A stretch of 64,000 nucleotides of DNA from Escherichia coli (GCF_017348835.2 NZ_CP071375.1); one strand, 5' to 3'; counted from the first letter of the stretch, positions 13,414-33,061 are shown. Numbers and translations are program-made. Notes: generated from the sequence alone by a model not told the origin.

Positions 13414-13562
13414 GACTCCTCCAGTGAGAAAATAGAGCAAAAAGATAAGTATAGATGCTGGAGGAGGGGCGATTTTAAATGAGAGGAATCTGGTGTGCCT
13501 CCCTTTCGGGTGAAAGGGAGGAAGGGATATTAAGCAGGTTGCTGACAACGTGCGGGCTTTTT

Positions 13563-13662
13563 TGCCGGATGCGGCGTGAACGCCTTATCCGTCCTACAAG
13601 TTCATGCAATTTTAATAAGTTGCCAGATATCCTGTAGGCCTGATAAGCGTAGCGCATCAGGC
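13563..13662. repeat. REP/BIME cluster between glnQ and ybiO
   Basis: gccggatgcggcgtgaacgccttatccg and gtaggcctgataagcgtagcgcatcaggc REP palindromes. Confidence 0.65.
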
Positions 13663-13673
13663 AATGTGTCTTA

Positions 13674-14396
13674 TTAAGAGACGTGCTGCAAAAATTCCTG
13701 CAAGCGCTGGCTCGGCGGGTTCTTGATCAACACCTGCGGGTCGCCATCTTCCGCAATTCGGCCTTTATCAATGAAGATAAGACGCGAAGCTACTTTCTCG
13801 GCAAAACCGATTTCGTGGGTCACGATCACCATCGTCATCCCTTCTTCAGCCAGATCCTGCATAACCTTCAGCACTTCATGGCGCAGTTCCGGGTCAAGAG
13901 CGGAAGTCGGTTCATCAAACAGCATCATTTTCGGCTTCACCGCCAGCGCACGGGCAATCGCCACACGCTGCTGTTGACCACCAGAAAGTTCGGAAGGGTA
14001 GTGATGTGCACGTTCTGCCAGACCGACTTTCGCCAGCAGCTCACGCGCCAGTTTTTCCGCCTCTTCTTTGTTCGCGCCACGCACGCGTAGCGGGCCAAAC
14101 ATGACGTTTTCCAGCGCCGTCAGATGCGGGAATATGTAAAACTGCTGGAACACCATACCTGCTTCCTGGCGAATCAGGCGCTCGTCAACTTTCGGATCGT
14201 TAACCTTCAGGCCATCGACAATCAGATCGCCGGAGGTGATTTCTTCCAGTTTGTTGATGCAGCGCAGCAGGGTCGATTTACCGGAACCGGACGGCCCGAT
14301 AATCACCACGACTTCGCCCTGAGCAATGTTCAAATCGATATTGTGCAGCACCTGGGTTGGACCAAAATGCTTGGAGACGTTTTTAAATTCAATCAC
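13674..14396 (-). CDS. glnQ: Glutamine ABC transporter ATP-binding protein GlnQ
   Basis: 240-aa ORF with Walker [10 protein letters not shown] and ABC signature LSGGQQQR. Confidence 0.93.
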
Positions 14397-15052
14397 AGGA
14401 TTTTCATCCTTCTTTCCAGACGACGCAGAATAAAGCTCAGCACCAGGGTAATAATCAGATAGAACACCGCCACGGCGCTCCAGATCTCAAGGGCGCGGAA
14501 GTTACCGGCAATAATTTCTTGCCCCTGACGGGTCAGTTCCGCCACGCCGATCACAATAAACAGCGAGGTGTCTTTAATGCTGATGATCCACTGGTTACCC
14601 AGCGGCGGCAGCATACGACGCAGTGCCAGCGGTAAAATGACGTAGCGAATGGTTTCCCAACGTGAAAGACCGAGCGCCAGTCCTGCTTCACGAAAACCTT
14701 TGTGGATAGACAGCACCGCACCACGCGTGATTTCCGCAATGTACGCGCCGGAGTTGATCATGATGGTGACCACCGCCGCAGTAAATGGGTCGATGCGTAA
14801 GTCGTTAAACGCCATCGGCAGGGCGAAATAAATAAACATCACCTGGACGACGATAGGTGTGCCGCGGATCACTTCAATAAAGACCAGCGCGACGTGGTTG
14901 GCTATCCAACCACCGAATGTGCGTGCAAAACCTGCCAGCAATCCGATTACCAGACCGCCAGCCAGACCGAGGACCGAAATCCACAGGGTCATTTTGGCAC
15001 CTTCAATCAGAAGCGGAATGGCAGGCCAGATGGCACTCCAGTCAAACTGCAT
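14393..15052 (-). CDS. glnP: Glutamine ABC transporter permease GlnP
   Basis: 219-aa membrane ORF, 4-bp overlap with glnQ. Confidence 0.93.
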
Positions 15053-15189
15053 ATGTTGTTCCTGTTACCGTGGTGTAAATAATCAAAGTTAGGGTAATTA
15101 ATGGCCCCGGAGCGGGTTTGCGCCTTCACCCTAATCCTCTCCCCAGAGGGGAGAGGGAACTGCCAGTGCGCTTTACAGGCGTAGCATTA

Positions 15190-15951
<762 letters not shown>

Positions 15952-15988
15952 CTATCCACGGGACGATCCCCTGCGTGACATTCACATA

Positions 15989-16006
15989 TATGAAAAAATC
16001 GTGCCA
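15989..16006 (-). promoter_or_regulatory. Sigma-54 (-24/-12) promoter element for glnH (glnHp2)
   Basis: Minus-strand TGGCACGATTTTTTCATA matches GG-N10-(G)C spacing, about 50 bp upstream of glnH start. Confidence 0.6.
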
Positions 16007-16039
16007 GTTTTGCAACTCATTGATTTTTCGAGATGCGGC

Positions 16040-16112
16040 AAAAACGTGATGCACGATTTATAGGGCAATACCCTGAAGATGCACCATTCTGGGGCACCAA
16101 ACTGGTGCGCTA
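16040..16112 (-). promoter_or_regulatory. NtrC enhancer sites upstream of glnHp2
   Basis: Overlapping matches to TGCACCA-N3-TGGTGCA: gcaccattctggggcacc and gcaccaaactggtgcgc. Confidence 0.55.
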
Positions 16113-16267
16113 AAATTGTGCACTCAACACAGTGATTATTTAGCGTAAAACCTGATGAAAAAACAATCTTTATGTAACGATTGTGTGATGATGTGGATAC
16201 AAAAAATTTACTTAACCAGCTGGAGATAGCAGATGGATGCACTAAATAAGTGCGTTGAGGCGGGCTG

Positions 16268-16300
16268 CAAAACAAAACGGCCTCCTGTCAGGAAGCCGCT
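16268..16300 (-). terminator. Candidate terminator downstream of dps
   Basis: Imperfect hairpin cggcctcctg/caggaagccg with T-rich tract on the minus strand. Confidence 0.45.
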
Positions 16301-16339
16301 TTTATCGTGTACTAAAGTTCTGCACCATCAGCGATGGAT

Positions 16340-16987
<648 letters not shown>

Positions 16988-17105
16988 TTAGATATATTGA
17001 TAAGAACAATTCTTATTTATTTGCTCGCCAGGAATTTTCGGAATAAATATGCTTTTGCATAATTCGATATATAAAGACGGTGTAGAGGAAAAGTAGCGAG
17101 AAATT

Positions 17106-17131
17106 CTGCATGGTTATGCATAACCATGCAG
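17106..17131. repeat. Perfect 26-bp palindrome ctgcatggttatgcataaccatgcag just 3' of rhtA
   Basis: Exact reverse-complement symmetry; possible rhtA terminator hairpin or dimeric protein-binding site. Confidence 0.7.
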
Positions 17132-17141
17132 AAATGTAAAT

Positions 17142-18029
17142 TTAATTAATGTCTAATTCTTTTATTTTGCTCTCTTTGCGTACTGTCAGCGTAGAACCCA
17201 TTGAAGCGGCGATAATCGCGCCGAGCGCCAGCAGCTGTATGGGTGTCAGTGTTTCTCCGAGGAAAATCATCCCGGAAACGGCAGCCAGCGCCGGTTCCAT
17301 GCTCATCAGCGTACCAAATGTCCGTGTTGGCAAACGGGTGAGGGCAATCATTTCCAGCGAATAAGGCAGAGCGGTCGAGAGAATAGCGACAGCCAGACCC
17401 AATGGAATAACCGACCAGTGCCAGAGTGCTTCACCAGCCTGAAGCGCTCCAATTGGCACGAAAATTAACGCTGCAATCAACGAACCAATTGCCACCGTCG
17501 CAGGGCCATGTTCCGCTCCTGCGCGTTGCCCACTTAAAATGTAAATAGCCCAACAAGCCCCGGCCCCCAGTGCCAGCGCACAGCCGGTTAAATCGACATG
17601 GGAAACGTCTTGCCCCAGAGGTAGCAGGAACCACAGACCAAGAACCGCCAGCACAACCCAGACGAAATCTACCGGGCGACGAGAAGAGAACAGCGCCACC
17701 GCCAGTGGTCCGGTGAACTCCAGCGCCACCGCAATACCCAGCGGTACTGTCTGAATAGAAAGATAAAAAAGATAATTCATCCCACCCAGCGAAACGCCGT
17801 AAAACAACAGCGGTAACCGTTGCTCTTTGGCAAAGCGCAGTCGCCATGGCTTAAAGAACGCGATGAGGATCAGCGTTCCTAATGCCAGGCGCAGCGCAGT
17901 GACACCCGGTGCGCCCACCAGAGGAAAAAGTGACTTAGCTAACGAGGCTCCACCCTGAATAGACGCCATGGCAACGAGCAATATGACTATTGGTAACCAG
18001 ACCGGCATTTTACGTAATGAACCAGGCAT
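17142..18029 (-). CDS. rhtA: Threonine/homoserine exporter RhtA (DMT/EamA family)
   Basis: ORF 17142..18041 trimmed to MPGSLRKMPVWLPIV start (295 aa). Confidence 0.88.
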   Translation of the reverse strand: MPGSLRKMPVWLPIVILLVAMASIQGGASLAKSLFPLVGAPGVTALRLALGTLILIAFFKPWRLRFAKEQRLPLLFYGVSLGGMNYLFYLSIQTVPLGIAVALEFTGPLAVALFSSRRPVDFVWVVLAVLGLWFLLPLGQDVSHVDLTGCALALGAGACWAIYILSGQRAGAEHGPATVAIGSLIAALIFVPIGALQAGEALWHWSVIPLGLAVAILSTALPYSLEMIALTRLPTRTFGTLMSMEPALAAVSGMIFLGETLTPIQLLALGAIIAASMGSTLTVRKESKIKELDIN

Positions 18030-18381
18030 CCTTTCTCCCACAAATATCTAGACTTAAGTAAAGCGTGGAGTGTACTGGATATACCCAATGCTGGTTGAGC
18101 ATTTGTTGAAAAAATTTTCCCCCGTTTTGACTAAAATGCGCCAGGATTGATGGAATCATTAGTCTGGTGATTAGGAATAATCTGGATGAATGACAGGGAA
18201 AACATGCGTAATACTTACGCAGTTCTCTGAAAAAGTGATTTAAATTTAGATGGATAGCGGTGTATGGAAACGTTCTGTTACATGAAATGGCCCGTTAGAC
18301 ATCACAAATCGCGAAGAGTTTCCCATTAATTTTTGATATATTTAAAACTTAGGACTTATTTGAATCACATTTGAGGTGGTT

Positions 18382-18897
18382 ATGAAAAAAATTGCATGTC
18401 TTTCAGCACTGGCCGCAGTTCTGGCTTTCACCGCAGGTACTTCCGTAGCTGCGACTTCTACCGTAACTGGCGGTTACGCACAGAGCGACGCTCAGGGCCA
18501 AATGAACAAAATGGGCGGTTTCAACCTGAAATACCGCTATGAAGAAGACAACAGCCCGCTGGGTGTGATCGGTTCTTTCACTTACACCGAGAAAAGCCGT
18601 ACTGCAAGCTCTGGTGACTACAACAAAAACCAGTACTACGGCATCACTGCTGGTCCGGCTTACCGCATTAACGACTGGGCAAGCATCTACGGTGTAGTGG
18701 GTGTGGGTTATGGTAAATTCCAGACCACTGAATACCCGACCTACAAACACGACACAAGCGACTACGGTTTCTCCTACGGTGCGGGTCTGCAGTTCAACCC
18801 GATGGAAAACGTTGCTCTGGACTTCTCTTACGAGCAGAGCCGTATTCGTAGCGTTGACGTAGGCACCTGGATTGCCGGTGTTGGTTACCGCTTCTAA
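18382..18897 (+). CDS. ompX: Outer membrane protein OmpX
   Basis: ORF trimmed to MKKIACLSALAAVLAFTAGTSVA signal peptide (171 aa); GAGG RBS. Confidence 0.93.
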   Translation: MKKIACLSALAAVLAFTAGTSVAATSTVTGGYAQSDAQGQMNKMGGFNLKYRYEEDNSPLGVIGSFTYTEKSRTASSGDYNKNQYYGITAGPAYRINDWASIYGVVGVGYGKFQTTEYPTYKHDTSDYGFSYGAGLQFNPMENVALDFSYEQSRIRSVDVGTWIAGVGYRF

Positions 18898-18911
18898 TCA
18901 CTTCGGTGATA

Positions 18912-18947
18912 TAAAAAATCCGCCTCTCGGGGCGGATTTTTTGTTTT
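18912..18947. terminator. Bidirectional rho-independent terminator between ompX and opgE
   Basis: Hairpin aaaaaatccgcc/tctcg/gggcggatttttt with A-run upstream and T-run downstream. Confidence 0.75.
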
Positions 18948-20529
18948 AAGGTTTCGGGTCGAAAATATCGGTTCCGAGATGGTTGTAATCCACCTTCTGT
19001 AACTGGAAGTTGGTGATGTATATCGGCCCGGCTTTCTTCTCAGATATAAACGGGTATTTGATGTTAATTTCCTTCGCTTTAATTCCCGTCCACTGGGAGA
19101 AAAAGCCTAAGAAGTCATTGGCTGAGCGGCGGGCTTTAATCACACGATGCGCTTTATCGTCGCTGGAAATGACCATAAAAGGCACCTGGAAATTTTGCTG
19201 ATATTTATCATCATGGGCAAGGTATTGCACGTCTTTGCCGCGCTCTTTAAAGGCCAGACCGTGGTCAGAAAAGTAAACCAGCGAGAAGCTGCTGCCGCTG
19301 TTGCGTAACTGATCGTACAGCTTGCGCAGTAAATCGTCCGTTTGCGTCATGGTATAGAGATAGCACGACGTTTCTTTCGATTGCACAAAGGTTTCGTATT
19401 TGCCTTGTGTCCGGTCGCAGGCCTGCGGATGTGAGCCCATCAGATGTAGAACAATCAGCTGCGGTTGCGAGTGCTCTTGCGCCAGCACTTGAGCGGTCAT
19501 ATCCAGTAACGCTTCGTCTTTGGTGTTTTTATCTGCTTCAAAATTACCTTCTTTCAGGAAGTACACTTCATCTGCTCGTTTGGCGATGCTGGCGATGGCG
19601 GTATCGTATTCGCCGATTTGACCCTGGTTGGAAAACCACCAGGTCTGGAAGCCCGCGCGATTTGCCAGGGTGACAAAGTTATCCTGAAACTGTGGCTTGC
19701 CATCGATAACGCGATTGAGCGTTAAGCCAAGCGATTTCTGCGTGGAGCCACTGGCGGCAATGTAGTCAGCAAATATCAAACCGTTAACGCTGCTGGCAAA
19801 CGGGGTATTGTCCCAGTGACCGCCAAAGGCACCGAGGGCATCGCGACGCGCGCTTTCACCGATCACCACCACATAGGTCTGATACTTCGGCTTAACGGCA
19901 GTGACCGTCCAGGTATCTTTCATTCCGGAAAGTTTTGCCATCCGTTCTTGCTCTTCAATCACCTCGTTATTATTGACGATGACATCCTTAGCAAAACGAA
20001 ATACCGGATAGCCAGTATCTTTCAGTTTAAATACGCCACCCCAGGCCAGGTTTTGCACGGGAGCAACAAAAAATGTCGCCACACTGAATACCAGACACAG
20101 GCTGTCGAAGGTATTCCAGCGCGCTTTTTCATTCTCTTTTTTTCGCCTGATTGCTATTACGCCGAGCGCAAAAATAAATAAGCCGACCAGGTAGCTGTAC
20201 CACGGAAAAATCGTCAGGATTTCGGTCGACTCTTCCATATTGGTGGAGTGCAATGCCAGCAATGTATTGAAATTAGGCGCGCCGTAGGCCTGAGCAAAAG
20301 GGAAATAACAAGCCGCCACCAGCGAACTGACACCGACCAGAACTTTTTGTACGCGAGGCAATGTTCGCCATAGCAAAAGCAAAATAGCCGTAAACGCAGC
20401 GGTGTAGAGCAAACTGAAGGGATAACCTAAGCCGAGGTTAATTAATAGCGACTGTAAAAAGTAGAACGCAGTCCACGGGCTAAATACCCGGCTACGGGTA
20501 ACAAGCGATTCTTTGAGGGTTAAATTCAT
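18946..20529 (-). CDS. opgE: Phosphoethanolamine transferase OpgE (YbiP)
   Basis: 527-aa ORF, N-terminal transmembrane segments plus sulfatase-like domain. Confidence 0.88.
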   Translation of the reverse strand: MNLTLKESLVTRSRVFSPWTAFYFLQSLLINLGLGYPFSLLYTAAFTAILLLLWRTLPRVQKVLVGVSSLVAACYFPFAQAYGAPNFNTLLALHSTNMEESTEILTIFPWYSYLVGLFIFALGVIAIRRKKENEKARWNTFDSLCLVFSVATFFVAPVQNLAWGGVFKLKDTGYPVFRFAKDVIVNNNEVIEEQERMAKLSGMKDTWTVTAVKPKYQTYVVVIGESARRDALGAFGGHWDNTPFASSVNGLIFADYIAASGSTQKSLGLTLNRVIDGKPQFQDNFVTLANRAGFQTWWFSNQGQIGEYDTAIASIAKRADEVYFLKEGNFEADKNTKDEALLDMTAQVLAQEHSQPQLIVLHLMGSHPQACDRTQGKYETFVQSKETSCYLYTMTQTDDLLRKLYDQLRNSGSSFSLVYFSDHGLAFKERGKDVQYLAHDDKYQQNFQVPFMVISSDDKAHRVIKARRSANDFLGFFSQWTGIKAKEINIKYPFISEKKAGPIYITNFQLQKVDYNHLGTDIFDPKP

Positions 20530-23894: not shown

Positions 23895-25487
23895 GTGTTA
23901 GTTTCCAGTAACGTCACCATGCAGTTCGGCAGTAAGCCGTTGTTTGAAAACATTTCCGTCAAATTTGGCGGCGGCAACCGTTACGGCCTGATTGGCGCGA
24001 ACGGTAGTGGTAAATCCACCTTTATGAAGATCCTCGGCGGCGACTTAGAGCCGACGTTGGGTAACGTTTCCCTCGATCCCAACGAGCGCATTGGTAAGCT
24101 GCGTCAGGATCAGTTTGCCTTTGAAGAGTTCACTGTGCTGGATACGGTGATCATGGGGCATAAAGAGTTGTGGGAAGTGAAGCAGGAGCGTGACCGCATC
24201 TATGCTTTGCCGGAAATGAGTGAAGAAGACGGCTATAAAGTGGCCGATCTGGAAGTTAAATACGGCGAAATGGACGGTTACTCTGCGGAAGCTCGCGCCG
24301 GTGAATTGTTGCTTGGCGTGGGAATTCCAGTGGAACAGCACTACGGCCCGATGAGTGAAGTTGCTCCTGGCTGGAAGCTGCGTGTGCTGCTGGCGCAGGC
24401 GCTGTTTGCTGATCCGGATATTCTCCTGCTCGACGAACCGACCAACAACCTCGACATCGACACCATTCGCTGGCTGGAACAGGTGCTGAACGAGCGCGAC
24501 AGCACCATGATCATCATCTCGCACGACCGTCACTTCCTTAACATGGTCTGTACCCACATGGCGGATCTGGATTACGGCGAGCTGCGCGTTTATCCGGGTA
24601 ACTACGATGAGTACATGACGGCGGCGACCCAGGCGCGTGAACGTCTGCTGGCCGATAACGCCAAGAAGAAAGCGCAGATTGCTGAGTTGCAATCTTTCGT
24701 TAGCCGCTTTAGCGCCAACGCCTCGAAATCTCGCCAGGCAACTTCGCGCGCGCGCCAGATTGATAAAATCAAACTGGAAGAGGTGAAAGCCTCCAGCCGT
24801 CAGAACCCGTTCATCCGTTTTGAACAGGATAAGAAACTGTTCCGTAACGCGCTGGAAGTGGAAGGTCTGACCAAAGGGTTTGATAACGGTCCGCTGTTTA
24901 AAAATCTCAACCTGCTGCTGGAAGTGGGTGAAAAACTGGCGGTACTGGGTACCAACGGCGTCGGTAAATCAACGCTGCTGAAAACGCTGGTGGGCGATCT
25001 GCAACCGGACAGCGGCACCGTAAAATGGTCTGAGAACGCGCGCATTGGTTACTATGCTCAGGACCACGAATATGAGTTTGAAAATGATCTGACCGTGTTC
25101 GAATGGATGAGCCAGTGGAAGCAGGAAGGCGATGACGAGCAGGCGGTACGCAGCATTCTCGGTCGTTTGCTGTTCAGCCAGGACGACATCAAAAAGCCAG
25201 CTAAAGTGCTTTCCGGTGGGGAAAAAGGGCGGATGCTGTTTGGTAAGTTAATGATGCAGAAGCCGAACATTCTGATCATGGACGAACCGACCAACCACCT
25301 GGATATGGAATCCATTGAGTCGCTGAACATGGCACTGGAACTGTATCAGGGCACGCTGATCTTTGTTTCACACGACCGTGAGTTCGTAAGCTCCCTGGCG
25401 ACCCGCATTCTGGAAATCACCCCGGAACGCGTGATCGACTTTAGCGGTAATTACGAAGATTACCTGCGTAGTAAAGGGATCGAGTAA
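23895..25487 (+). CDS. ybiT: ABC-F family ATPase YbiT
   Basis: 530-aa ORF with two ABC cassettes (two Walker A, two LSGGE signatures), no membrane domain. Confidence 0.9.
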
Positions 25488-25496
25488 GTGATTATC

Positions 25497-25525
25497 CGTC
25501 ACCCCGATACTGTCGGGGTGACGGC
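25497..25525 (+). terminator. Hairpin just after ybiT stop
   Basis: Perfect 10-bp stem ccgtcacccc/ggggtgacgg; no T-run. Confidence 0.4.
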
Positions 25526-25547
25526 GGCTGATGACAAATGCAAAATA

Positions 25548-25648
25548 GCCTGATGCGCTACGCTTATCAGGCCTACGCAGTACCTGCAATATATTGAATC
25601 TGCAGGACTTTGTAGGCCGGATAAGGCGTTAACGCCGCATCAGGCATT
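25548..25648. repeat. REP/BIME cluster between ybiT and ybiU
   Basis: cctgatgcgctacgcttatcaggcctac and gtaggccggataaggcgttaacgccgcatcaggc REP units. Confidence 0.65.
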
Positions 25649-25727
25649 AACAAAGCGCATTTGTCAGCAATCTGAGTAACGTCGAATCGATTTTCTTAAT
25701 CCCACATCAATTCACTTCCATTAATTC

Positions 25728-26993
25728 TCAAACATCCATGCCCAACGCTCGCTTACCGTGAATGTTGAGGTCGGCAAGCGTAAAGCGTCCTTCCCAGTTT
25801 GTTTCATAGTCCTCGCGCGGGAAGTCGCCCGGCGATGCGCCTTTTTCCAGTGCGGCCTTCACCTTGTGCGCGTAGGCAAGATTTTTCTCGCACATCGGTG
25901 CCGCAGGAATGTACATCACGTTGCCCCAACCTTGTTGATTTTCAACGGGGGCAACGGAATGGATGACGTCGCAGTGCCACCAGACGGAGTCTCCGGCTTC
26001 GAGTTTTGGAATGCTGGTTAACGCCTCAATCAACAGTGGATGCCATTGCTCTGATACCGGCAATACTCTTCCGGGCGCTACGCCGCACAGTTCATCCTCC
26101 GGCACATCATCAAGCAGCGGACGTAACAGTACGTACGCCATAGCTTCAGGAATGGGCACGACGTGCAGCAGCCCCTGACCAGGCAGCATATCAGAGAGCG
26201 CTGTCCAGCCCTGGAATGTCCGAAACACGGAACATTTGGTGGTGTTGTCCACCGTGTACTCTTCAACTTCCGTACGATGTGCCGCATGCCAGGGATCATA
26301 TTGCGCCAGATTGCCATTAAAGACGTTGGCGAAAACGCGCTGATACGCTGGAAGCAGCCAGCGTTCCAGTGCCCCGGAGTCGGTATGCGCTCCAAGACCT
26401 TTGGAGGTCGTTCCGGGCGGACGGCGGCGGATACGGTCAGGGTAGATGACGCTCACATCCGGGTTAAACCATTGCTTTCCATCACTTTCAAATGTCCACA
26501 GACGATTGAGAAACGACTGCGCATTCGCCATTTCTTCACTCTGGCGAGCCTGCATTTGCGCCTGCGACCAGTAGATGGGGTAAATCTCGGGACGTGAAGC
26601 GCTGAGCGTCCCGAAGAAATTATCGCCGGGGCCTTTGTAGACCTCGTCAAAGCGGTTGCGGTCCAGATAGTCCAGCATCGACTGATCCCAGCCTAGCGCT
26701 TGTTCGCGGGGGAAATGGCCTTTTATCACCGCACAACCGCGACGTTTAATCTGTTCGCGCTGCTCTGCAGTAACATGACCTGCTTTGATATCGGCATAAG
26801 ACAGCACCGGCCAGACGGCATCGCCCTGTGCTTTGAGTGCGTTGATTTCAGCCACTCGCGTGGCAATGTCATCGCTTAGCTGATTAAAGATCTGCTGGAC
26901 GTCGCCAAGCTGCGCCCGCAGCGCGTGCTTCATCTGACGGATAGCTGCTTTGTGATCGGCAGGCAATGTGTCGCTGGTAAAAGTAGAAGCCAT
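25728..26993 (-). CDS. ybiU: DUF1479-family protein YbiU
   Basis: ORF 25728..26999 trimmed to MASTFTSD start (421 aa). Confidence 0.85.
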   Translation of the reverse strand: MASTFTSDTLPADHKAAIRQMKHALRAQLGDVQQIFNQLSDDIATRVAEINALKAQGDAVWPVLSYADIKAGHVTAEQREQIKRRGCAVIKGHFPREQALGWDQSMLDYLDRNRFDEVYKGPGDNFFGTLSASRPEIYPIYWSQAQMQARQSEEMANAQSFLNRLWTFESDGKQWFNPDVSVIYPDRIRRRPPGTTSKGLGAHTDSGALERWLLPAYQRVFANVFNGNLAQYDPWHAAHRTEVEEYTVDNTTKCSVFRTFQGWTALSDMLPGQGLLHVVPIPEAMAYVLLRPLLDDVPEDELCGVAPGRVLPVSEQWHPLLIEALTSIPKLEAGDSVWWHCDVIHSVAPVENQQGWGNVMYIPAAPMCEKNLAYAHKVKAALEKGASPGDFPREDYETNWEGRFTLADLNIHGKRALGMDV

Positions 26994-27144
26994 AACCACC
27001 TCGCATTAACTTTCATTCGAAACTATGATGATTTGCATGTGACAATATAAGTTATAAATAAGTTAATGCAAGTTTAATGATTTGATGTGATGTACAGGAT
27101 GTAAAAAGAAGGGAAAACCGGAGCGCATGGCTCCGGTAGAGAGG

Positions 27145-27960
27145 TCAGCTGTTAAAAGGGGATGTGTTATCCAGCACCGCCTGAATCACATTCAGCGCGC
27201 CTTCGTGATTATTATCATCGGTAGCGTAACGGGCGATTTGTTTAATGTTTTCCGCAGCATTGCCCATCGCAAAGGAATAACGCGCCATTTTCAGCATCTC
27301 CGCATCGTTACCGCTGTCGCCAATCGCTACCACATTTTGCGGTGACAGATCCCAGCGTTTCAGTAATCGCGAAATACCGTTTGCTTTATGTAGACCGGGA
27401 ATAATCAGGTCGATAAAGCCAAAACCACTGGTAACGGGTTTCATAATGCCATCCAGCGCTATGTGCAGTTTGTCGATCACTAACGGGATTTGTTCATCCG
27501 GCAGGTTGAGCGAAAACTTGAACAGTACGTCGTCAATTTCCTGATAATCTTTTACAGGTTTCAGGCGATGGTAGTGTTTTGCCATCAGTGCGACGAATGC
27601 TTCGGGGGCATTTTCGCTGACATATGCACTTTGCAGACCGCAGGCGACAAAATTGAGTTGCTTATCTTTTAGCAACTCGCCAATAACAATCCGCGATTCA
27701 TGTCGGGTCAGTTCGCCGTGGAACAACTGCTTGCCATGTTCGTAAACCAGTGCACCGTTTTCCGCGACAAAAGAGATCTCATCCTTTAGCTCAGGAAAGA
27801 ACGAAATAAGCTGGTAATACTGATTACCGCTGGCGACAACGAACTTAATGCCGCGCTTTTTCAGTTCCTGATATTGCGCCATAAAACGTGGTTGGTTGTA
27901 CGTTTTGGCGTCGTTAAGAAAAGTACCGTCCATGTCTGTGACGATAACTTTTACGCTCAT
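27145..27960 (-). CDS. ybiV: Cof-type HAD sugar phosphatase YbiV
   Basis: 271-aa ORF with DxD motif (TDMDGT) at N-terminus and GDSGND. Confidence 0.9.
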
Positions 27961-28105
27961 AGGTGTGCTCCTGGCTCGAAAATGAAACCGTAACAGTGTA
28001 ATAACAATGTGACGCAGAGCACAAATTATATTTCGAATGAAAGTGAGAGTGAAATTGATGGTGTGAATGATTTAGCCCGGCGACGTCTCCGCCGGGCTGA
28101 GGGGA

Positions 28106-30538
28106 TTACAGCATATGTTCGGTACGGGCGATGATATCGTCCTGAGCGTCTGGAGAGAGCGCGGTGAAGAAGGCGGAATAACCCGCGACACGCACTACCA
28201 GATCGCGATACTGATCGGGATGTTTTTTCGCATCCAGCAGCGTTTCGCGGGAAACGATGTTGTACTGAATATGCCAGCCTTTATGCACTTCAAAGAAGGT
28301 GCGCAGCAGGATCATCAGTTTCTGCTTGTCAGATTCGTTCTCCAGCGTCGCCGGATTCAGTTTCTGGTTGAGCAACACGCCGCCGAGGATCGCTGCCGTA
28401 GGCAGTTTACCCACCGAGCCAATGACCGCAGTAGGGCCAAGATGATCAGTACCGGAGGCCGGGCTTGCGCCTTCTGCCAGCGGGGTGTGGGCTTTACGTC
28501 CGTCCGGCGTTGCCATCGTCTGTGCGCCAAACGGCACGTTAGCGGAGATAGACGACGTACCCGCGTAATAGTTGCCGCCAACCGGACCACGACCGTAGCG
28601 CGGGTTATGGTACTGTTTCAGTTCGTCGATATAGGTCTGATAAGCGCGAGCCAGCAGCGTATCGACAGTATCATCGTCGTTGCCGTACTTCGGCGCACCG
28701 TTAATCAGCCGCTGACGCAGCTGCTCGTGAGTCAGGCCGTCGAAGTCATCCGCCAGTGCGACAGCCAGCTGTTGCTGACCAATCGCGCCCTGTTCAAATA
28801 CCAGTTTCTTCACTGCCGCCAGGCTGTTGCCGAGGTTGGCAATACCCACCTGTAAGCCAGAAACCCAGTCATATTTCGCGCCGCCTTGCTTGATACTTTT
28901 CGCTCGCTCAATACAGTCATCCACCAGCGCCGAGCAGAGAATATCGTGCACGTTCTCTTCCAGCATGGTATCGACGACATATTCGATTTCGATCGATTTG
29001 CGGGTGTAGTAACGGATTTGGGTATCCCACGCGTCCATCACTTCATCGAAATTGTTAAAGTTACCCGCTGACAACGCTTTTTCTTGTGGCAGAAACACGT
29101 TGCCGCTGGTGGCATCGCGACCGCCTTCCAGCGCTGCCAGCATCACACGGGCGAAGTTGATAAAGCTCATCCCGGTGCAGCGATAGCCCCATTTACCGCC
29201 AACGGCGGTTTCGATACAGCCAATCGCTGCGTAGTCGTAAGCGTCCTGCGGTTCAATACCGAGTTTGATAAATTCCGGGATGACGATTTCGTCGTTGTTG
29301 AAGGCGGGCATCCCGAAGCCGCAGCGGATCACCTGTACGCAGGCGTCGAGGAAATCATTACTCATCCCCGCATGGTAACGCACGCTGAGGTTAGGCTGAG
29401 TCGAACGCAGGCGACCGCAGGATTCGAGGATCGCATAAGAGAGCGGATTCACCGCATCCATCGGCTGACCATCAACCAGATTTTGCCCGCCAATGGTGAC
29501 GTTCTGATACAGCGGACTTCCCGCGGAGGCTTTTGAGTGCGAGCCGGAGCGGATCTTGTTCACTTCCAGCAGTTTCAACCAGCAGCTATGCAGCAATTCG
29601 ATGGCGTGTTCGCGATCCAGCGTCTGGTTCAGTTCAACATCACGGCGATAGTACGGGTAGAGATACTGGTCCATACGACCAAACGACACCGAGTGACCGT
29701 TAGATTCAATCTGCAAAATCAACTGGATGAAGTAGCACAGTTGCAGCGCCTGCCAGAACGTCTGCGGCGGCTGGTGGGCGATGAGGTCGCAGTTTTCTGC
29801 CATCGCCAGCAGTTCATCACGGCGGCTTTCGCGGGTTTCAGTCGCTGCCATTTCACGCGCCAGGGCAGCGAAACGTTCAATGTGTTCACTGACTGCCACC
29901 AGCACGATATCAATCGCTTTCAGGAATTGCTCACCGTGTAAATCTTCCAGCACCGTCAGGTTGATGCGCGAGCGACGTTCCGCTACTTTCTCGCGCAGAC
30001 CATCAAGCCCTTTTTCCAGCAGCAGCGGGAAATTGACCGCCAGGTGCGCATCGCCGGAGGTCATATTGCCTTCCGCTTTAATGATGCCGGTCGCCAGCAG
30101 ACCTTTTTGCTCATCGGTAAACATGCCGTAGCAGCGATCCTGTACGGTCTGACCGCGCCACCACGGGCACACTTCATGCAGAACGCGTTTGTTCTCTTCG
30201 CTCACCGCAAAGCCAGCACCGGGACGATCTGCCAGATCATCAATCTCTTTTTCGATCCACGAGACGGTATATTCCGGGAAGATCGGCGCGGCGCGAACTT
30301 CGCTTGCCTGGTTGCCAATGATCAACTCATCGTGTTTGATCCAGATGGTGCGATTCGCCAGGTGATGCGCCAGTGCCAGCGCGCGACGTACCGGGATCGG
30401 CTTATCGAGATGTTGTTGATACATCTCGGTATAGTGCTGCGCGCGCTCGGTACAGACTGGCGGTTTCACAATATGCACCAGCGCATTTTTGTGCGCTTTA
30501 ATGCGGTCGCTGAGCGTGTCCAGTTTCAGTGTGGTCAT
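28106..30538 (-). CDS. ybiW: Glycyl-radical enzyme (pyruvate formate-lyase-like) YbiW
   Basis: 810-aa ORF; C-terminal glycyl-radical motif RVAGYSA. Confidence 0.9.
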   Translation of the reverse strand: MTTLKLDTLSDRIKAHKNALVHIVKPPVCTERAQHYTEMYQQHLDKPIPVRRALALAHHLANRTIWIKHDELIIGNQASEVRAAPIFPEYTVSWIEKEIDDLADRPGAGFAVSEENKRVLHEVCPWWRGQTVQDRCYGMFTDEQKGLLATGIIKAEGNMTSGDAHLAVNFPLLLEKGLDGLREKVAERRSRINLTVLEDLHGEQFLKAIDIVLVAVSEHIERFAALAREMAATETRESRRDELLAMAENCDLIAHQPPQTFWQALQLCYFIQLILQIESNGHSVSFGRMDQYLYPYYRRDVELNQTLDREHAIELLHSCWLKLLEVNKIRSGSHSKASAGSPLYQNVTIGGQNLVDGQPMDAVNPLSYAILESCGRLRSTQPNLSVRYHAGMSNDFLDACVQVIRCGFGMPAFNNDEIVIPEFIKLGIEPQDAYDYAAIGCIETAVGGKWGYRCTGMSFINFARVMLAALEGGRDATSGNVFLPQEKALSAGNFNNFDEVMDAWDTQIRYYTRKSIEIEYVVDTMLEENVHDILCSALVDDCIERAKSIKQGGAKYDWVSGLQVGIANLGNSLAAVKKLVFEQGAIGQQQLAVALADDFDGLTHEQLRQRLINGAPKYGNDDDTVDTLLARAYQTYIDELKQYHNPRYGRGPVGGNYYAGTSSISANVPFGAQTMATPDGRKAHTPLAEGASPASGTDHLGPTAVIGSVGKLPTAAILGGVLLNQKLNPATLENESDKQKLMILLRTFFEVHKGWHIQYNIVSRETLLDAKKHPDQYRDLVVRVAGYSAFFTALSPDAQDDIIARTEHML

Positions 30539-30543
30539 GGTTG

Positions 30544-31443
30544 TTATCCTCGTAAGGTCGTGGTTAACCCTTTCTGGCAGGCATACTGCTGGGCAAAGTC
30601 GAGCAGTTCTGGCGCATCAAGCGGTTTTTCCGGGGCGTCATAGGGCAGATTAAGTAAGTGATATTTGTTGATGCCCAGCGTGTGGTAGGGCAGGAAATGA
30701 ATTTCGCCAACGTGCAGCTCGTCGGCGGCAAAATCGGTAATGGCTTTTACAGAGGTTTCGTCGGCATTAAAGCCCTGAATCAGTGGCACGCGGATAATGA
30801 TTTTTTTGCCCGCTGCGGCGAGTTTTTTCAGGTTATCCAGCACCCTGGCGGCGTTACCGTCGGTCCACTGTTTAAACGGCGCGTTGGCAACGTGTTTTAA
30901 ATCGGCAAGAAACAGATCGATATAGGGCAGAGAAGGGGCAATATATTTCCACGGCACATGCAGACAGGTTTCTACCGCAGTATGAATGCCAGCCTCGTGG
31001 CTGGCTTGCAGTAGCGCCATCGCCATTTCCGGCTGCATAAACGGTTCACCGCCAGAAAGCGTTAAGCCGCCGCCGCTGCGATCGTAAAACGGTTTATCGC
31101 GCAGAACGGTCGCCATGATCTCCTCAACGCTTTTCACTTCCCCACACACGGTTAACGCCTGTGTCGGGCAGCAGTCGGTTAACGCCGTCAGATGCTCCGG
31201 GGTTAACTTTTCCCGATGAATAAGCAAACCATTCAACGCACGCTCAATCACGTCCGGCGCGGCCTTAGCGCACAGCTCGCAGCCTTCCAGACACAGTCGT
31301 GCGTCATACAACAGATCCTGCGTGCGGGCGCGGCTTTCCGGGTTCTGACACCAGCGGCAGCCCAGCGAACAGCCTTTAAGAAATACGACCGTGCGGATAC
31401 CGGGGCCATCATGGGTCGAGTAGCGCTGAATATTGAAAATCAT
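30544..31443 (-). CDS. ybiY: Glycyl-radical enzyme activating enzyme YbiY (radical SAM)
   Basis: CxxxCxxC radical-SAM motif (CSLGCRWC); start placed at second ATG (MIFNIQRYS) which follows GAGAGG RBS. Confidence 0.8.
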
Positions 31444-31573
31444 AGTTGCCTCTCTGTTTCGTTCAAACATTAAAATACTTTCGAATGAAAGTTAGATTGA
31501 TGTGCGTCAACTGTTCAGAGAGTTTTCCCGTGATAGTCTACATTCAGACAAAAAGTACATTTTGAGGATGGTT

Positions 31574-32236
31574 ATGGAACTGTATCTGGATACTTCAGAC
31601 GTTGTTGCGGTGAAGGCGCTGTCACGTATTTTTCCGCTGGCGGGTGTGACTACTAACCCAAGCATTATCGCCGCGGGTAAAAAACCGCTGGAGGTTGTGC
31701 TTCCGGAACTTCATGAAGCGATGGGCGGTCAGGGGCGTCTGTTTGCCCAGGTAATGGCTACCACTGCTGAAGGGATGGTGAATGACGCGCTTAAGCTGCG
31801 TTCTATTATTGCGGATATCGTGGTGAAAGTTCCGGTGACCGCCGAGGGGCTGGCAGCGATTAAGATGTTAAAAGCGGAAGGGATTCCGACGCTGGGAACC
31901 GCGGTATATGGCGCGGCACAAGGGCTGCTGTCGGCGCTGGCAGGTGCGGAATATGTTGCGCCTTACGTTAATCGTATTGATGCTCAGGGCGGTAGCGGCA
32001 TTCAGACTGTGACCGACTTACACCAGTTATTGAAAATGCATGCGCCGCAGGCGAAAGTGCTGGCAGCCAGTTTCAAAACCCCGCGTCAGGCGCTGGACTG
32101 CTTACTGGCAGGATGTGAATCAATTACTCTGCCGCTGGATGTCGCACAACAGATGATTAGCTATCCGGCGGTTGATGCCGCTGTGGCGAAGTTTGAGCAG
32201 GACTGGCAGGGAGCGTTTGGCAGAACGTCGATTTAA
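31574..32236 (+). CDS. fsaA: Fructose-6-phosphate aldolase 1
   Basis: ORF 31502..32236 trimmed to [10 protein letters not shown] start (220 aa), transaldolase-like. Confidence 0.9.
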
Positions 32237-32311
32237 CCGGACGTTCTGCATCCTCATAAATTGCTGATGACGTGGCGGAGTGCCGCGTCTTATCAGGCCT
32301 GAAGGTGGCAA

Positions 32312-33061
32312 TTACTGCCCGCACACCTCACACCCCGGATTACTCATCAGTTTCATTTCGCGAAACTGACAGGTCATCGCATCGTACATGACGATTTTCC
32401 CGCTGGCCGGTTTACCATAACCTGCCAGCAGTTTGATCGCTTCCATTGCCTGCAATGAACCAATTACGCCGATCAACGGTGCCATCACGCCTGCTTCTAC
32501 GCAGGTTAACGCGTTCTCGCCAAACAAACGGCTAAGGCAGCGATAGCACGGTTCGCCGTCCTGATAAGTGAAGACCGTGATTTGACCTTCCATACGAATT
32601 GCCGCGCCGGAAACCAGCGGCACCTTCGCGGCAAAACAGCCTGCGTTCAGTTGATTACGTACCGCAACGTTATCCGTACAGTCGAGCACCAGATCGTGTT
32701 CAGCAATCAATGCTGCAAGTTCTGCGTCATCCAGCAGTGCATTGACTGGCGTAATCGCGATATGTGGGTTGATCCGCGCCAGGGCGTCACGGGCGGATTC
32801 CACCTTCGGTTGCCCGACCGTGGCATCACTGTGCAGCGTCTGGCGTTGCAGATTCGAGAGCGAAACCGAGTCGAAGTCGAGCAGCGTCAGGTTGCCGACA
32901 CCGGCGCTTGCCAGATACTGCGAAGCTGCGCAGCCGAGTCCACCGAGGCCGACTACCAGCACACGAGAATCTTTTAGCGCCTCCTGACCGTCAAAATCAA
33001 AACCGCGCAGAATGATTTGCCGGTTGTAGCGCAGCATCTCCTGATCGCTGAGTTCCGCCAT
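32312..33061 (-). CDS. moeB: Molybdopterin-synthase adenylyltransferase MoeB
   Basis: 249-aa ORF with ThiF/MoeB GxGxxG (VVGLGGLG) and C-terminal CxxC pairs. Confidence 0.93.
   Translation of the reverse strand: MAELSDQEMLRYNRQIILRGFDFDGQEALKDSRVLVVGLGGLGCAASQYLASAGVGNLTLLDFDSVSLSNLQRQTLHSDATVGQPKVESARDALARINPHIAITPVNALLDDAELAALIAEHDLVLDCTDNVAVRNQLNAGCFAAKVPLVSGAAIRMEGQITVFTYQDGEPCYRCLSRLFGENALTCVEAGVMAPLIGVIGSLQAMEAIKLLAGYGKPASGKIVMYDAMTCQFREMKLMSNPGCEVCGQ

Follow-up and report, generated by a model that had tools for sequence, protein, structure and literature searches.

The 64,000-nucleotide stretch of Escherichia coli DNA analysed here (GCF_017348835.2, NZ_CP071375.1; referred to below as the window) contains, between positions 25,728 and 32,236, the genes ybiU, ybiV, ybiW, ybiY and fsaA, and this locus very probably represents the glucose-configured branch of the anaerobic 1,5-anhydroglucitol (1,5-AG) pathway, with YciT as a probable and FNR as a predicted regulator. 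All positions refer to the whole window, and strands are relative to the strand shown. The core of the locus consists of ybiW (28106-30538, minus strand), coding for a glycyl radical enzyme of 810 amino acids that acts as the 1,5-anhydroglucitol-6-phosphate (1,5-AG6P) C-O lyase, ybiY (30544-31443, minus strand), coding for the 299-residue radical S-adenosylmethionine (radical-SAM) activase of YbiW, and fsaA (31574-32236, plus strand), coding for fructose-6-phosphate aldolase 1 (FSA; 220 amino acids). Since the functions of YbiW, YbiY and FsaA have been solved, by biochemistry and crystal structures, since 2024, the locus is already known and not new; the additions made here, namely a shared operator, an FNR-like box, the linkage of a yciT-like gene and a variable ybiU, are modest.

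According to a 2025 review (PMC12441222) that summarises the work of Ma et al. (J Am Chem Soc 2024, 146:26187), YbiW cleaves 1,5-AG6P to 1-deoxyfructose-6-phosphate, its paralogue PflD turns the mannitol epimer, 1,5-anhydromannitol-6-phosphate (1,5-AM6P), into 1-deoxyfructose-6-phosphate as well, and the anhydro-polyols are phosphorylated by the phosphotransferase system (PTS). The review also reports that the ring-opening C-O cleavage by YbiW requires the glycyl radical and strict anaerobiosis, and that E. coli and many other gut bacteria grow on 1,5-AG. Structures are available in the PDB for YbiW (8id7 and 8yjn) and for PflD (8yjo). For a long time YbiW, PflD and both FSA aldolases had been orphan enzymes of E. 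coli K-12, a gap that the anhydro-sugar assignment closed in 2024. The initial annotation of the locus, made from the DNA alone, had suggested an anaerobic dehydration pathway for a sugar phosphate or deoxy-sugar. This reading was in essence correct, its suggestion to test anhydro-sugars included; the anaerobic and sugar-phosphate parts agree with PMC12441222, the compound being a 1-deoxy/anhydro sugar phosphate, but the reaction of YbiW is a net isomerisation and not a net dehydration, with the ring oxygen as the leaving group; the accompanying remark that the substrate was long unassigned has been out of date for YbiW since 2024. Some medical interest attaches to the breakdown of 1,5-AG by gut bacteria. 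This compound is the most abundant polyol of human blood, and according to PMC12441222 its 6-phosphate leads to neutropenia in G6PC3 and G6PT deficiency.

Profile searches revealed in YbiW the domains PF02901 (PFL-like, 695 bits) and PF01228 (Gly_radical, 113 bits). The protein scored 1406.6 bits against TIGR01774, the PFL2/dehydratase model, for which the cut-off is 678.2, and 163.3 bits against TIGR01255, the equivalog model of pyruvate formate-lyase (PFL), which is below the cut-off of 994.2. The glycyl radical motif RVAGYSA was located at residues 783-789 (28172-28192), with G786 as the radical site. Over residues 1-810 YbiW matched the PDB entries 8id7 and 8yjn, deposited as 'Probable dehydratase YbiW', with 1853 bits; the protein encoded in the window differs from the crystallised one at a few residues, of which some appear to have been engineered into the construct. 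The best heterologous PDB matches were a glycerol dehydratase (1r8w, 548 bits) and a diol dehydratase (5i2a, 508 bits).

The comparison of active sites covered PflB, PflD, glycerol dehydratase and diol dehydratase. In a MAFFT alignment with the K-12 PflB and PflD proteins, YbiW is 26% identical to PflB and 39% identical to PflD, and the cysteine loop reads AAIGCIETAVGGK in YbiW, SVVGCVELSIPGR in PflD and AIACCVSPMIVGK in PflB. Residues G440-C441-I-E443 of YbiW lie opposite C418-C419 of PflB (ACCVS), so that YbiW has one cysteine followed by a glutamate and no Cys-Cys dyad. The thiyl Cys441, encoded together with Glu443 at 29210-29218, aligns with C433 of glycerol dehydratase and C419 of PflB. 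Judged from its sequence, YbiW is an eliminase-type glycyl radical enzyme and not a copy of PflB, because a single thiyl Cys441 with Glu443 two residues further on is the signature of radical eliminases. The alignment with PFL and glycerol dehydratase, which the initial annotation had proposed as a check, thus returned the eliminase-type arrangement C441-x-E443.

YbiY scored 368.6 bits against TIGR02494, a model of glycyl-radical activases with a cut-off of 174.35, and contains the cluster motif CSLGCRWC (C25-X3-C29-X2-C32) at 31348-31371. A further cysteine-rich insert comprises C51, C55, C58, C91, C92 and C100; with 299 versus approximately 246 amino acids, YbiY exceeds PflA in length by about 50 residues, and its match to PflA-type models is interrupted in part, consistent with this insert. 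The genes ybiW and ybiY are separated by 5 bp. Their neighbourhood was compared across 80 Enterobacterales loci obtained from one scan of species-representative genomes, in which YbiW is 85-99% identical and the neighbouring genes were mapped by tblastn; ybiY lies beside ybiW in every one of the 80 species. Both motifs named in the initial annotation, RVAGYSA in YbiW and CxxxCxxC in YbiY, are therefore present as described, and the domain content of YbiW (PF02901 and PF01228), the TIGR02494 match of YbiY and their constant adjacency confirm that the two proteins form a glycyl radical enzyme and activase pair. FsaA matched NF009296 with 451 bits (cut-off 306) and TIGR00875 with 280 bits (cut-off 246), and possesses Lys85, within VVKVP, the Schiff-base lysine of FSA. 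FSA accepts hydroxyacetone as a donor, and its physiological role was described as 'enigmatic' in 2020 (PMC7767278).

In the proposed pathway, 1,5-AG would enter the cell through the PTS as the 6-phosphate. YbiY would place the glycyl radical on G786 of YbiW, from where the radical would move to C441. By analogy to B12-independent diol dehydratases, the C441 thiyl radical would take a hydrogen atom from C2 of the substrate, with E443 deprotonating the C2 hydroxyl; the resulting ketyl radical would expel the ring oxygen from C1 (the C1-O5 bond), thereby opening the ring, and return of the hydrogen to C1 would give 1-deoxyfructose-6-phosphate. Because the C2 stereocentre would be lost in such a mechanism, a single product is expected from both epimers, 1,5-AG6P and 1,5-AM6P. 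FsaA would then split 1-deoxyfructose-6-phosphate into hydroxyacetone and glyceraldehyde-3-phosphate, the latter passing into glycolysis, as suggested by the nature of this product and by the donor range of FSA.

Regulatory sequences link this core to the two remaining genes. A 16-nt palindrome, ACTTTC-N4-GAAAGT, is present in three copies in the 64-kb window, with no others at up to three mismatches. The first, ACTTTC-GAAT-GAAAGT (31477-31492), is a perfect palindrome situated in the 130-bp spacer between the divergent genes ybiY and fsaA, and is a probable site for YciT, a regulator of the DeoR family. The second, ACTTTCATTCGAAATA (28029-28044), lies between the -35 (TTCACT, 28048-28053) and -10 (TATAAT, 28025-28030) elements of the predicted ybiV promoter (28025-28053, minus strand), the best predicted promoter of the region with 10 of 12 matches in a promoter scan. 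The third, AGTTTC-GAAT-GAAAGT (27009-27024, minus strand), is found 16 nt before the start codon of ybiU. Chromatin immunoprecipitation with exonuclease treatment (ChIP-exo) detected peaks of YciT at ybiV and at ybiY/fsaA, and these genes change in a yciT deletion (PMC8464067). In a massively parallel reporter preprint the ybiYW promoter was active only anaerobically, YciT was enriched on the promoter DNA, and an activator footprint was reported without a candidate factor; repression of ybiYW by YciT is published. The palindrome is probably the YciT site, and YciT would bind it as a repressor over the promoters of ybiYW/fsaA, ybiV and ybiU. The initial annotation had allowed that the genes might not be co-expressed; the YciT binding and expression changes (PMC8464067), together with an operator before each transcription unit, argue otherwise.

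No copy of the operator exists at the K-12 pflD/frw cluster (0 matches at up to three mismatches), and no convincing copy was found near K-12 yciT. It was also not found upstream of yciT-like genes in other genera, and there is therefore no sign of autoregulation. Two further genes of the window, apparently ybiO (5744-7945) and ompX (18376-18897) as identified by reading-frame length and K-12 gene order, have no operator copy at up to three mismatches. Both are additional ChIP-exo targets of YciT (PMC8464067), and since the operator is absent there, YciT may bind at these genes in a different or weaker mode.

FNR recognises the consensus TTGAT-N4-ATCAA. Upstream of the ybiY operator, and separated from it by 4 nt, is a box matching this consensus at nine of ten positions, TTGATGTGCGTCAA (31497-31510). 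It is predicted to be an anaerobic activator site of class II, centred at about -41.5 for ybiY, and possibly occupies the same position, about -41.5, for the divergent fsaA promoter. The class II geometry would place the operator at -32 to -17, the -10 element TTTAAT of the ybiYW promoter at 31469-31474 (minus strand) and the transcription start near 31462; the AATTTAAT block around this predicted -10 element is 83-99% conserved in 75 species. At the same position as in E. coli, the box has at most one mismatch in 58 of the 80 species and at most two in 75, and its TTGA and TCAA half-sites are 96-100% conserved, with the N4 core free to vary. Common descent alone would not be expected to leave such a pattern, whereas a bound site would. 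No FNR-like box was detected upstream of ybiV (0 of 59 species) or of ybiU (0 of 57). The box could be the unnamed activator site of the reporter study, and such an arrangement would account for both the anaerobic activation and the activator footprint recorded there. Next to the ybiY operator, it would confine the oxygen-sensitive YbiW/YbiY pair to anaerobiosis.

Two hairpins lie between the minus-strand genes. The first (27117-27137, minus strand), just past the ybiV stop codon, is terminator-like, with an 8-bp stem including six GC pairs and a T-run (TTTTCCCTTCT tail), and parts ybiV from ybiU. The second, AGCCCGGCG-gagacgt-CGCCGGGCT (28074-28098, minus strand), is GC-rich, forms a perfect 9-bp stem 8 nt past the stop codon of ybiW and lacks a U-tract; it was not called by the terminator scan, and could be a weak terminator or a stabiliser of the 3' end of the mRNA. 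Transcription of ybiYW may thus either stop at this hairpin or continue into ybiV. Given these hairpins and the copies of the operator and promoter, the minus-strand genes probably form three transcription units sharing one operator.

The comparison across Enterobacterales also showed how far the other members of the locus accompany ybiW. The initial annotation had proposed to look for co-occurrence; in the 80 species ybiY and ybiW always occur together, but fsaA, as the divergent partner of ybiY, lies beside ybiW in 62 of the 80 species, ybiV in 59 and ybiU in 57. The 14-nt core of the operator, at up to two mismatches, gave 196 matches in the 1.58 Mb of sequence from these species, versus about 10 expected by chance, of which 80 are upstream of ybiY, 54 of ybiV and 55 of ybiU. 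All but five of the 196 fall in those promoter regions or at a ybiU or yciT-like gene that has moved; of these five, four apparently stand just before ybiV in loci bearing insertions. Upstream of ybiY the palindrome is complete (12/12) in 66 of the 80 species and has at most one mismatch in 73; it is present upstream of ybiU with at most two mismatches in 55 of 57 species, and in 57 of 59 it precedes ybiV with at most three, always 80-85 nt from the start.

A gene for a protein 58-78% identical to YciT of E. coli is found near ybiW in ten of the more distant species; it follows ybiW immediately in seven of them, and in Brenneria, Rouxiella and Mangrovibacter it is no more than about 2.5 kb away. 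The gene order in Serratia is rnb-cstA-fsa-ybiY-ybiW-yciT, and K-12 yciT is likewise close to rnb. Because of this linkage elsewhere and the proximity to rnb, there is good comparative support for YciT as the cognate regulator and for the E. coli arrangement being the derived one. In Mangrovibacter a relocated ybiU adjoins the yciT-like gene, and the motif is still found near the start of ybiU. An extended cluster is that of Rouxiella aceris (5074-19107 of its locus), which comprises a DeoR regulator, ybiU, fsa, ybiYW, an ROK kinase, a GldA-like iron alcohol dehydrogenase, the yciT-like gene, an MFS transporter gene and a PTS EIICB gene, with an operator-like motif upstream of the MFS gene at 17334; it looks like a self-contained pathway from uptake to propanediol. 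A different setting is seen in Yersinia massiliensis, Y. alsatica and Y. frederiksenii (7310-13946), where ybiYW lies between a divergent sgrR and an MFS gene and where fsa, ybiV, ybiU, the operator and the FNR box are absent from the three loci. This agrees with a 2009 report (PMC2760817) that describes an insertion of ybiYW between sgrR and sgrS in Y. enterocolitica, and hints that ybiYW of Yersinia is under sugar-phosphate-stress control.

Several points weigh against the assignment of the whole locus to a YciT- and FNR-controlled 1,5-AG pathway. The substrate of YbiW is taken from a secondary summary (PMC12441222) and from the names of PDB entries, and analogy is the basis for the site of hydrogen abstraction and for what E443 and the histidines are proposed to do. 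Neither a transporter nor a kinase is encoded in the locus itself. The operator was connected to YciT by inference, and the reporter study locates YciT at about -5 relative to the start that it predicts itself, versus the -17 to -32 predicted here. A literature search found no publication linking FNR to ybiY, and FNR binding is a prediction from the sequence. Finally, in most of the more distant species (for example Serratia, Yersinia, Buttiauxella and Brenneria) neither ybiU nor ybiV adjoins ybiW, and ybiU has no DNA match in 1096 of 5426 (about 20%) complete E. coli genomes, being matched in the other 4330.

The last two observations concern ybiU (25728-26993, minus strand; 421 amino acids) and ybiV, also known as supH (27145-27960, minus strand; 271 amino acids). 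YbiV is a Cof-type HAD-IIB sugar phosphatase; it scored 222 bits against TIGR00099 (cut-off 137), has known structures (PDB 1rlm and 2hf2) and contains the DxD nucleophile motif at D9/D11. No paper linking YbiV to anhydroglucitol was found in a literature search. YbiU belongs to the DUF1479/Gig2-like family (PF07350, E=2e-154) and is near-identical to PDB 2dbi, one of the family structures 2dbi, 2csg, 4rgk and 7twc/7twe, of which 4rgk was titled 'putative phytanoyl-CoA dioxygenase family protein' by its depositors. All 21 orthologues compared share H203-x-D205 and H340/H345, candidate residues for the His-x-Asp/Glu ... His metal triad of such dioxygenases. The first Foldseek matches of YbiU outside its family were PhyH-type Fe(II)/2-oxoglutarate dioxygenases, with E values of 5e-3 to 7e-2 obtained with a weak model (predicted local distance difference test score 62, from an alignment of 21 sequences). 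Profile searches of PDB and Pfam returned nothing beyond the DUF1479 family, no Pfam oxygenase family being matched, and no relevant literature on DUF1479 function was found. These fold matches are no more than suggestive of YbiU being an Fe(II)/2-oxoglutarate dioxygenase.

The gene ybiU is dispensable and variable. Among the 4330 E. coli genomes with a match, the best match is only 60-80% identical in 242, and an unannotated gap of 2.6 kb in E. coli HH97 holds a ybiU remnant (3519-6139 of its locus). YbiU of the E. coli species representative (13546-14799 of its locus) and of Escherichia sp. E1V33 are only 82-84% identical to YbiU of the window, and the Citrobacter proteins are 89-94% identical to it. 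The greater closeness of Citrobacter YbiU than of some Escherichia YbiU, the 60-80% alleles and the remnant suggest that ybiU, and ybiU only, may have undergone allelic replacement or horizontal exchange.

These features raise the question of whether ybiU and ybiV are unrelated neighbours, the functional unit being ybiYW plus fsaA only and the five-gene order an accident of Escherichia, Citrobacter and Enterobacter. Such an explanation would fit the division of the minus-strand genes by the terminator-like hairpin and separate predicted promoters, the lack of a ybiU DNA match in a part of E. coli genomes and its remnant in HH97, and the failure to find either gene beside ybiW in most distant loci; moreover, the pathway summary (PMC12441222) gives neither gene a role. 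However, the operator of ybiY also precedes ybiV and ybiU in nearly all species that have them beside ybiW, ybiV is bound by YciT and altered in expression when yciT is deleted (PMC8464067), the relocated ybiU of Mangrovibacter stands beside the yciT-like gene with the motif near its start, and ybiU of Rouxiella is only about 1 kb beyond fsa. We therefore consider a chance association unlikely, while giving it appreciable weight.

A second alternative would make YbiW a B12-independent dehydratase of glycerol or 1,2-propanediol, since, its own orthologues aside, its closest relatives of known structure are enzymes of this kind (1r8w and 5i2a). The residues C441-x-E443, H165, H282-S283 and Y344 of YbiW align with C433-x-E435, H164, H281-S282 and Y339 of 1r8w, and the ESNGHS block is common to both. 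The glycerol-binding set of the B12-independent glycerol dehydratase comprises H164, S282, Y339, D447 and Y640 (1r8w numbering), and this full set is not found in YbiW: H165, S283 and Y344 are kept, but Y640 aligns with Ser662, beside a six-residue insertion of YbiW (YGRGPV, 648-653), and D447 aligns with Gly456, the latter pairing being less certain as it lies in a gapped stretch. In addition, no genes for aldehyde handling or microcompartments occur nearby, an aldolase being present instead, and the published substrate is a hexitol phosphate (PMC12441222). On the combined evidence of binding residues, gene context and published substrate the glycerol dehydratase alternative was rejected as very improbable. 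That YbiW and YbiY are a spare PFL and its activase, making formate and acetyl-CoA from pyruvate as in older annotations such as 'putative pyruvate formate lyase', is hardly credible at all: the superfamily domain pair and the label 'formate C-acetyltransferase' of a close orthologue (PDB 6xs4), repeated in the ChIP-exo paper (PMC8464067), speak for it, but 26% identity to PflB, a G-C-I-E loop (GCIE against ACCVS) in place of the C-C dyad that PFL needs for acyl transfer, 163 bits against a PFL cut-off of 994 versus 1407 bits for TIGR01774, and the published activity on 1,5-AG6P (PMC12441222) effectively refute the plain PFL paralogue that the initial annotation had kept in view.

Within the 1,5-AG pathway assignment, which thus remains by far the most probable, ybiV and ybiU, having the operator and no FNR box, would be co-induced with the core genes without being oxygen-gated, and would be accessory rather than core. 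A speculative extension, which we think has a small chance of being correct, is that they constitute an oxygen-tolerant arm of the YciT regulon, in which YbiU would hydroxylate C1 of 1,5-AG or its 6-phosphate to give glucose or glucose-6-phosphate, YbiV would dephosphorylate accumulated 1,5-AG6P, and YciT would sense a sugar phosphate. This would explain the operator without an FNR box at both genes. If so, YbiU would rescue a dead-end analogue when oxygen inactivates YbiW, and YbiV would be a bacterial counterpart of human G6PC3.

Regarding its genomic setting, positions 25000-33000 of the window are 100% identical to the chromosome of E. coli strain PE164, and at least 80% of this 8-kb stretch is carried by 5384 of 5426 complete E. 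coli genomes. The reading frames sit at the coordinates assigned to them in the initial annotation and agree with the RefSeq annotation of PE164; together with the profile searches they confirm that ybiU, ybiV, ybiW and ybiY are co-oriented and that fsaA is divergent from them. The longest possible reading frames are too long at the start for ybiY (308 versus 299 amino acids), ybiU (423 versus 421) and fsaA (244 versus 220), the profile match of the last beginning at residue 25. As in K-12, the genes ybiR-ldtB-ybiT and moeB-moeA flank the locus on its two sides. In PE164, genes of a recombinase family, an HNH endonuclease and a helix-turn-helix protein lie directly upstream of ybiT (1-4861 of the PE164 locus), where the window has ldtB; this is an island inserted upstream of ybiT in PE164 and absent from the window. 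Palindromes resembling repetitive extragenic palindromic sequences and bacterial interspersed mosaic elements (REP/BIME) are present at 25496-25670, downstream of ybiU, and at 32289-32300, downstream of fsaA (for example GCCGGATAAGGCGTTAACG), with CTTATCAGGCCT at both ends. The median number of places matched by the 8-kb query in an E. coli genome was 17, probably because of these REP/BIME-like palindromes.

Comparison with known systems places the locus as follows. It is the same system as the YbiW/YbiY/FsaA 1,5-AG pathway of E. coli (Ma et al. 2024); the gene order is that of K-12 and nothing of substance differs. The closest parallel is the 1,5-AM6P branch, PflD/PflC with FsaB, GldA and the Frw PTS, where the K-12 cluster gldA-fsaB-ptsA / frwC-frwB-pflD-pflC-frwD repeats the enzyme-plus-aldolase logic of ybiYW-fsaA, with a paralogous radical enzyme that gives the same product, 1-deoxyfructose-6-phosphate, its activase and an FSA-type aldolase. 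The PflD cluster differs in having its own PTS components and gldA and in lacking ybiU, ybiV and a copy of the operator. The block IESNGHSVS of YbiW reads YESNASSLS in PflD, a difference that could bear on selectivity for the C2 epimers. Clostridium butyricum DhaB1 (1r8w) has the same fold, Gly/Cys radical relay, C-x-E general base, and substrate-binding His and ESNGHS block as YbiW, and the same ketyl radical/beta-elimination chemistry is expected of both. Unlike DhaB1, YbiW acts on a cyclic hexitol phosphate with the ring oxygen as leaving group, and has Ser in place of Y640, Gly in place of D447 and the six-residue insertion. PflB and PflA share with YbiW and YbiY the superfamily, the C-terminal glycyl radical domain and activation by a radical-SAM enzyme, but PflB employs a Cys-Cys dyad for C-C cleavage, whereas YbiW has a single Cys plus Glu and cleaves a C-O bond.

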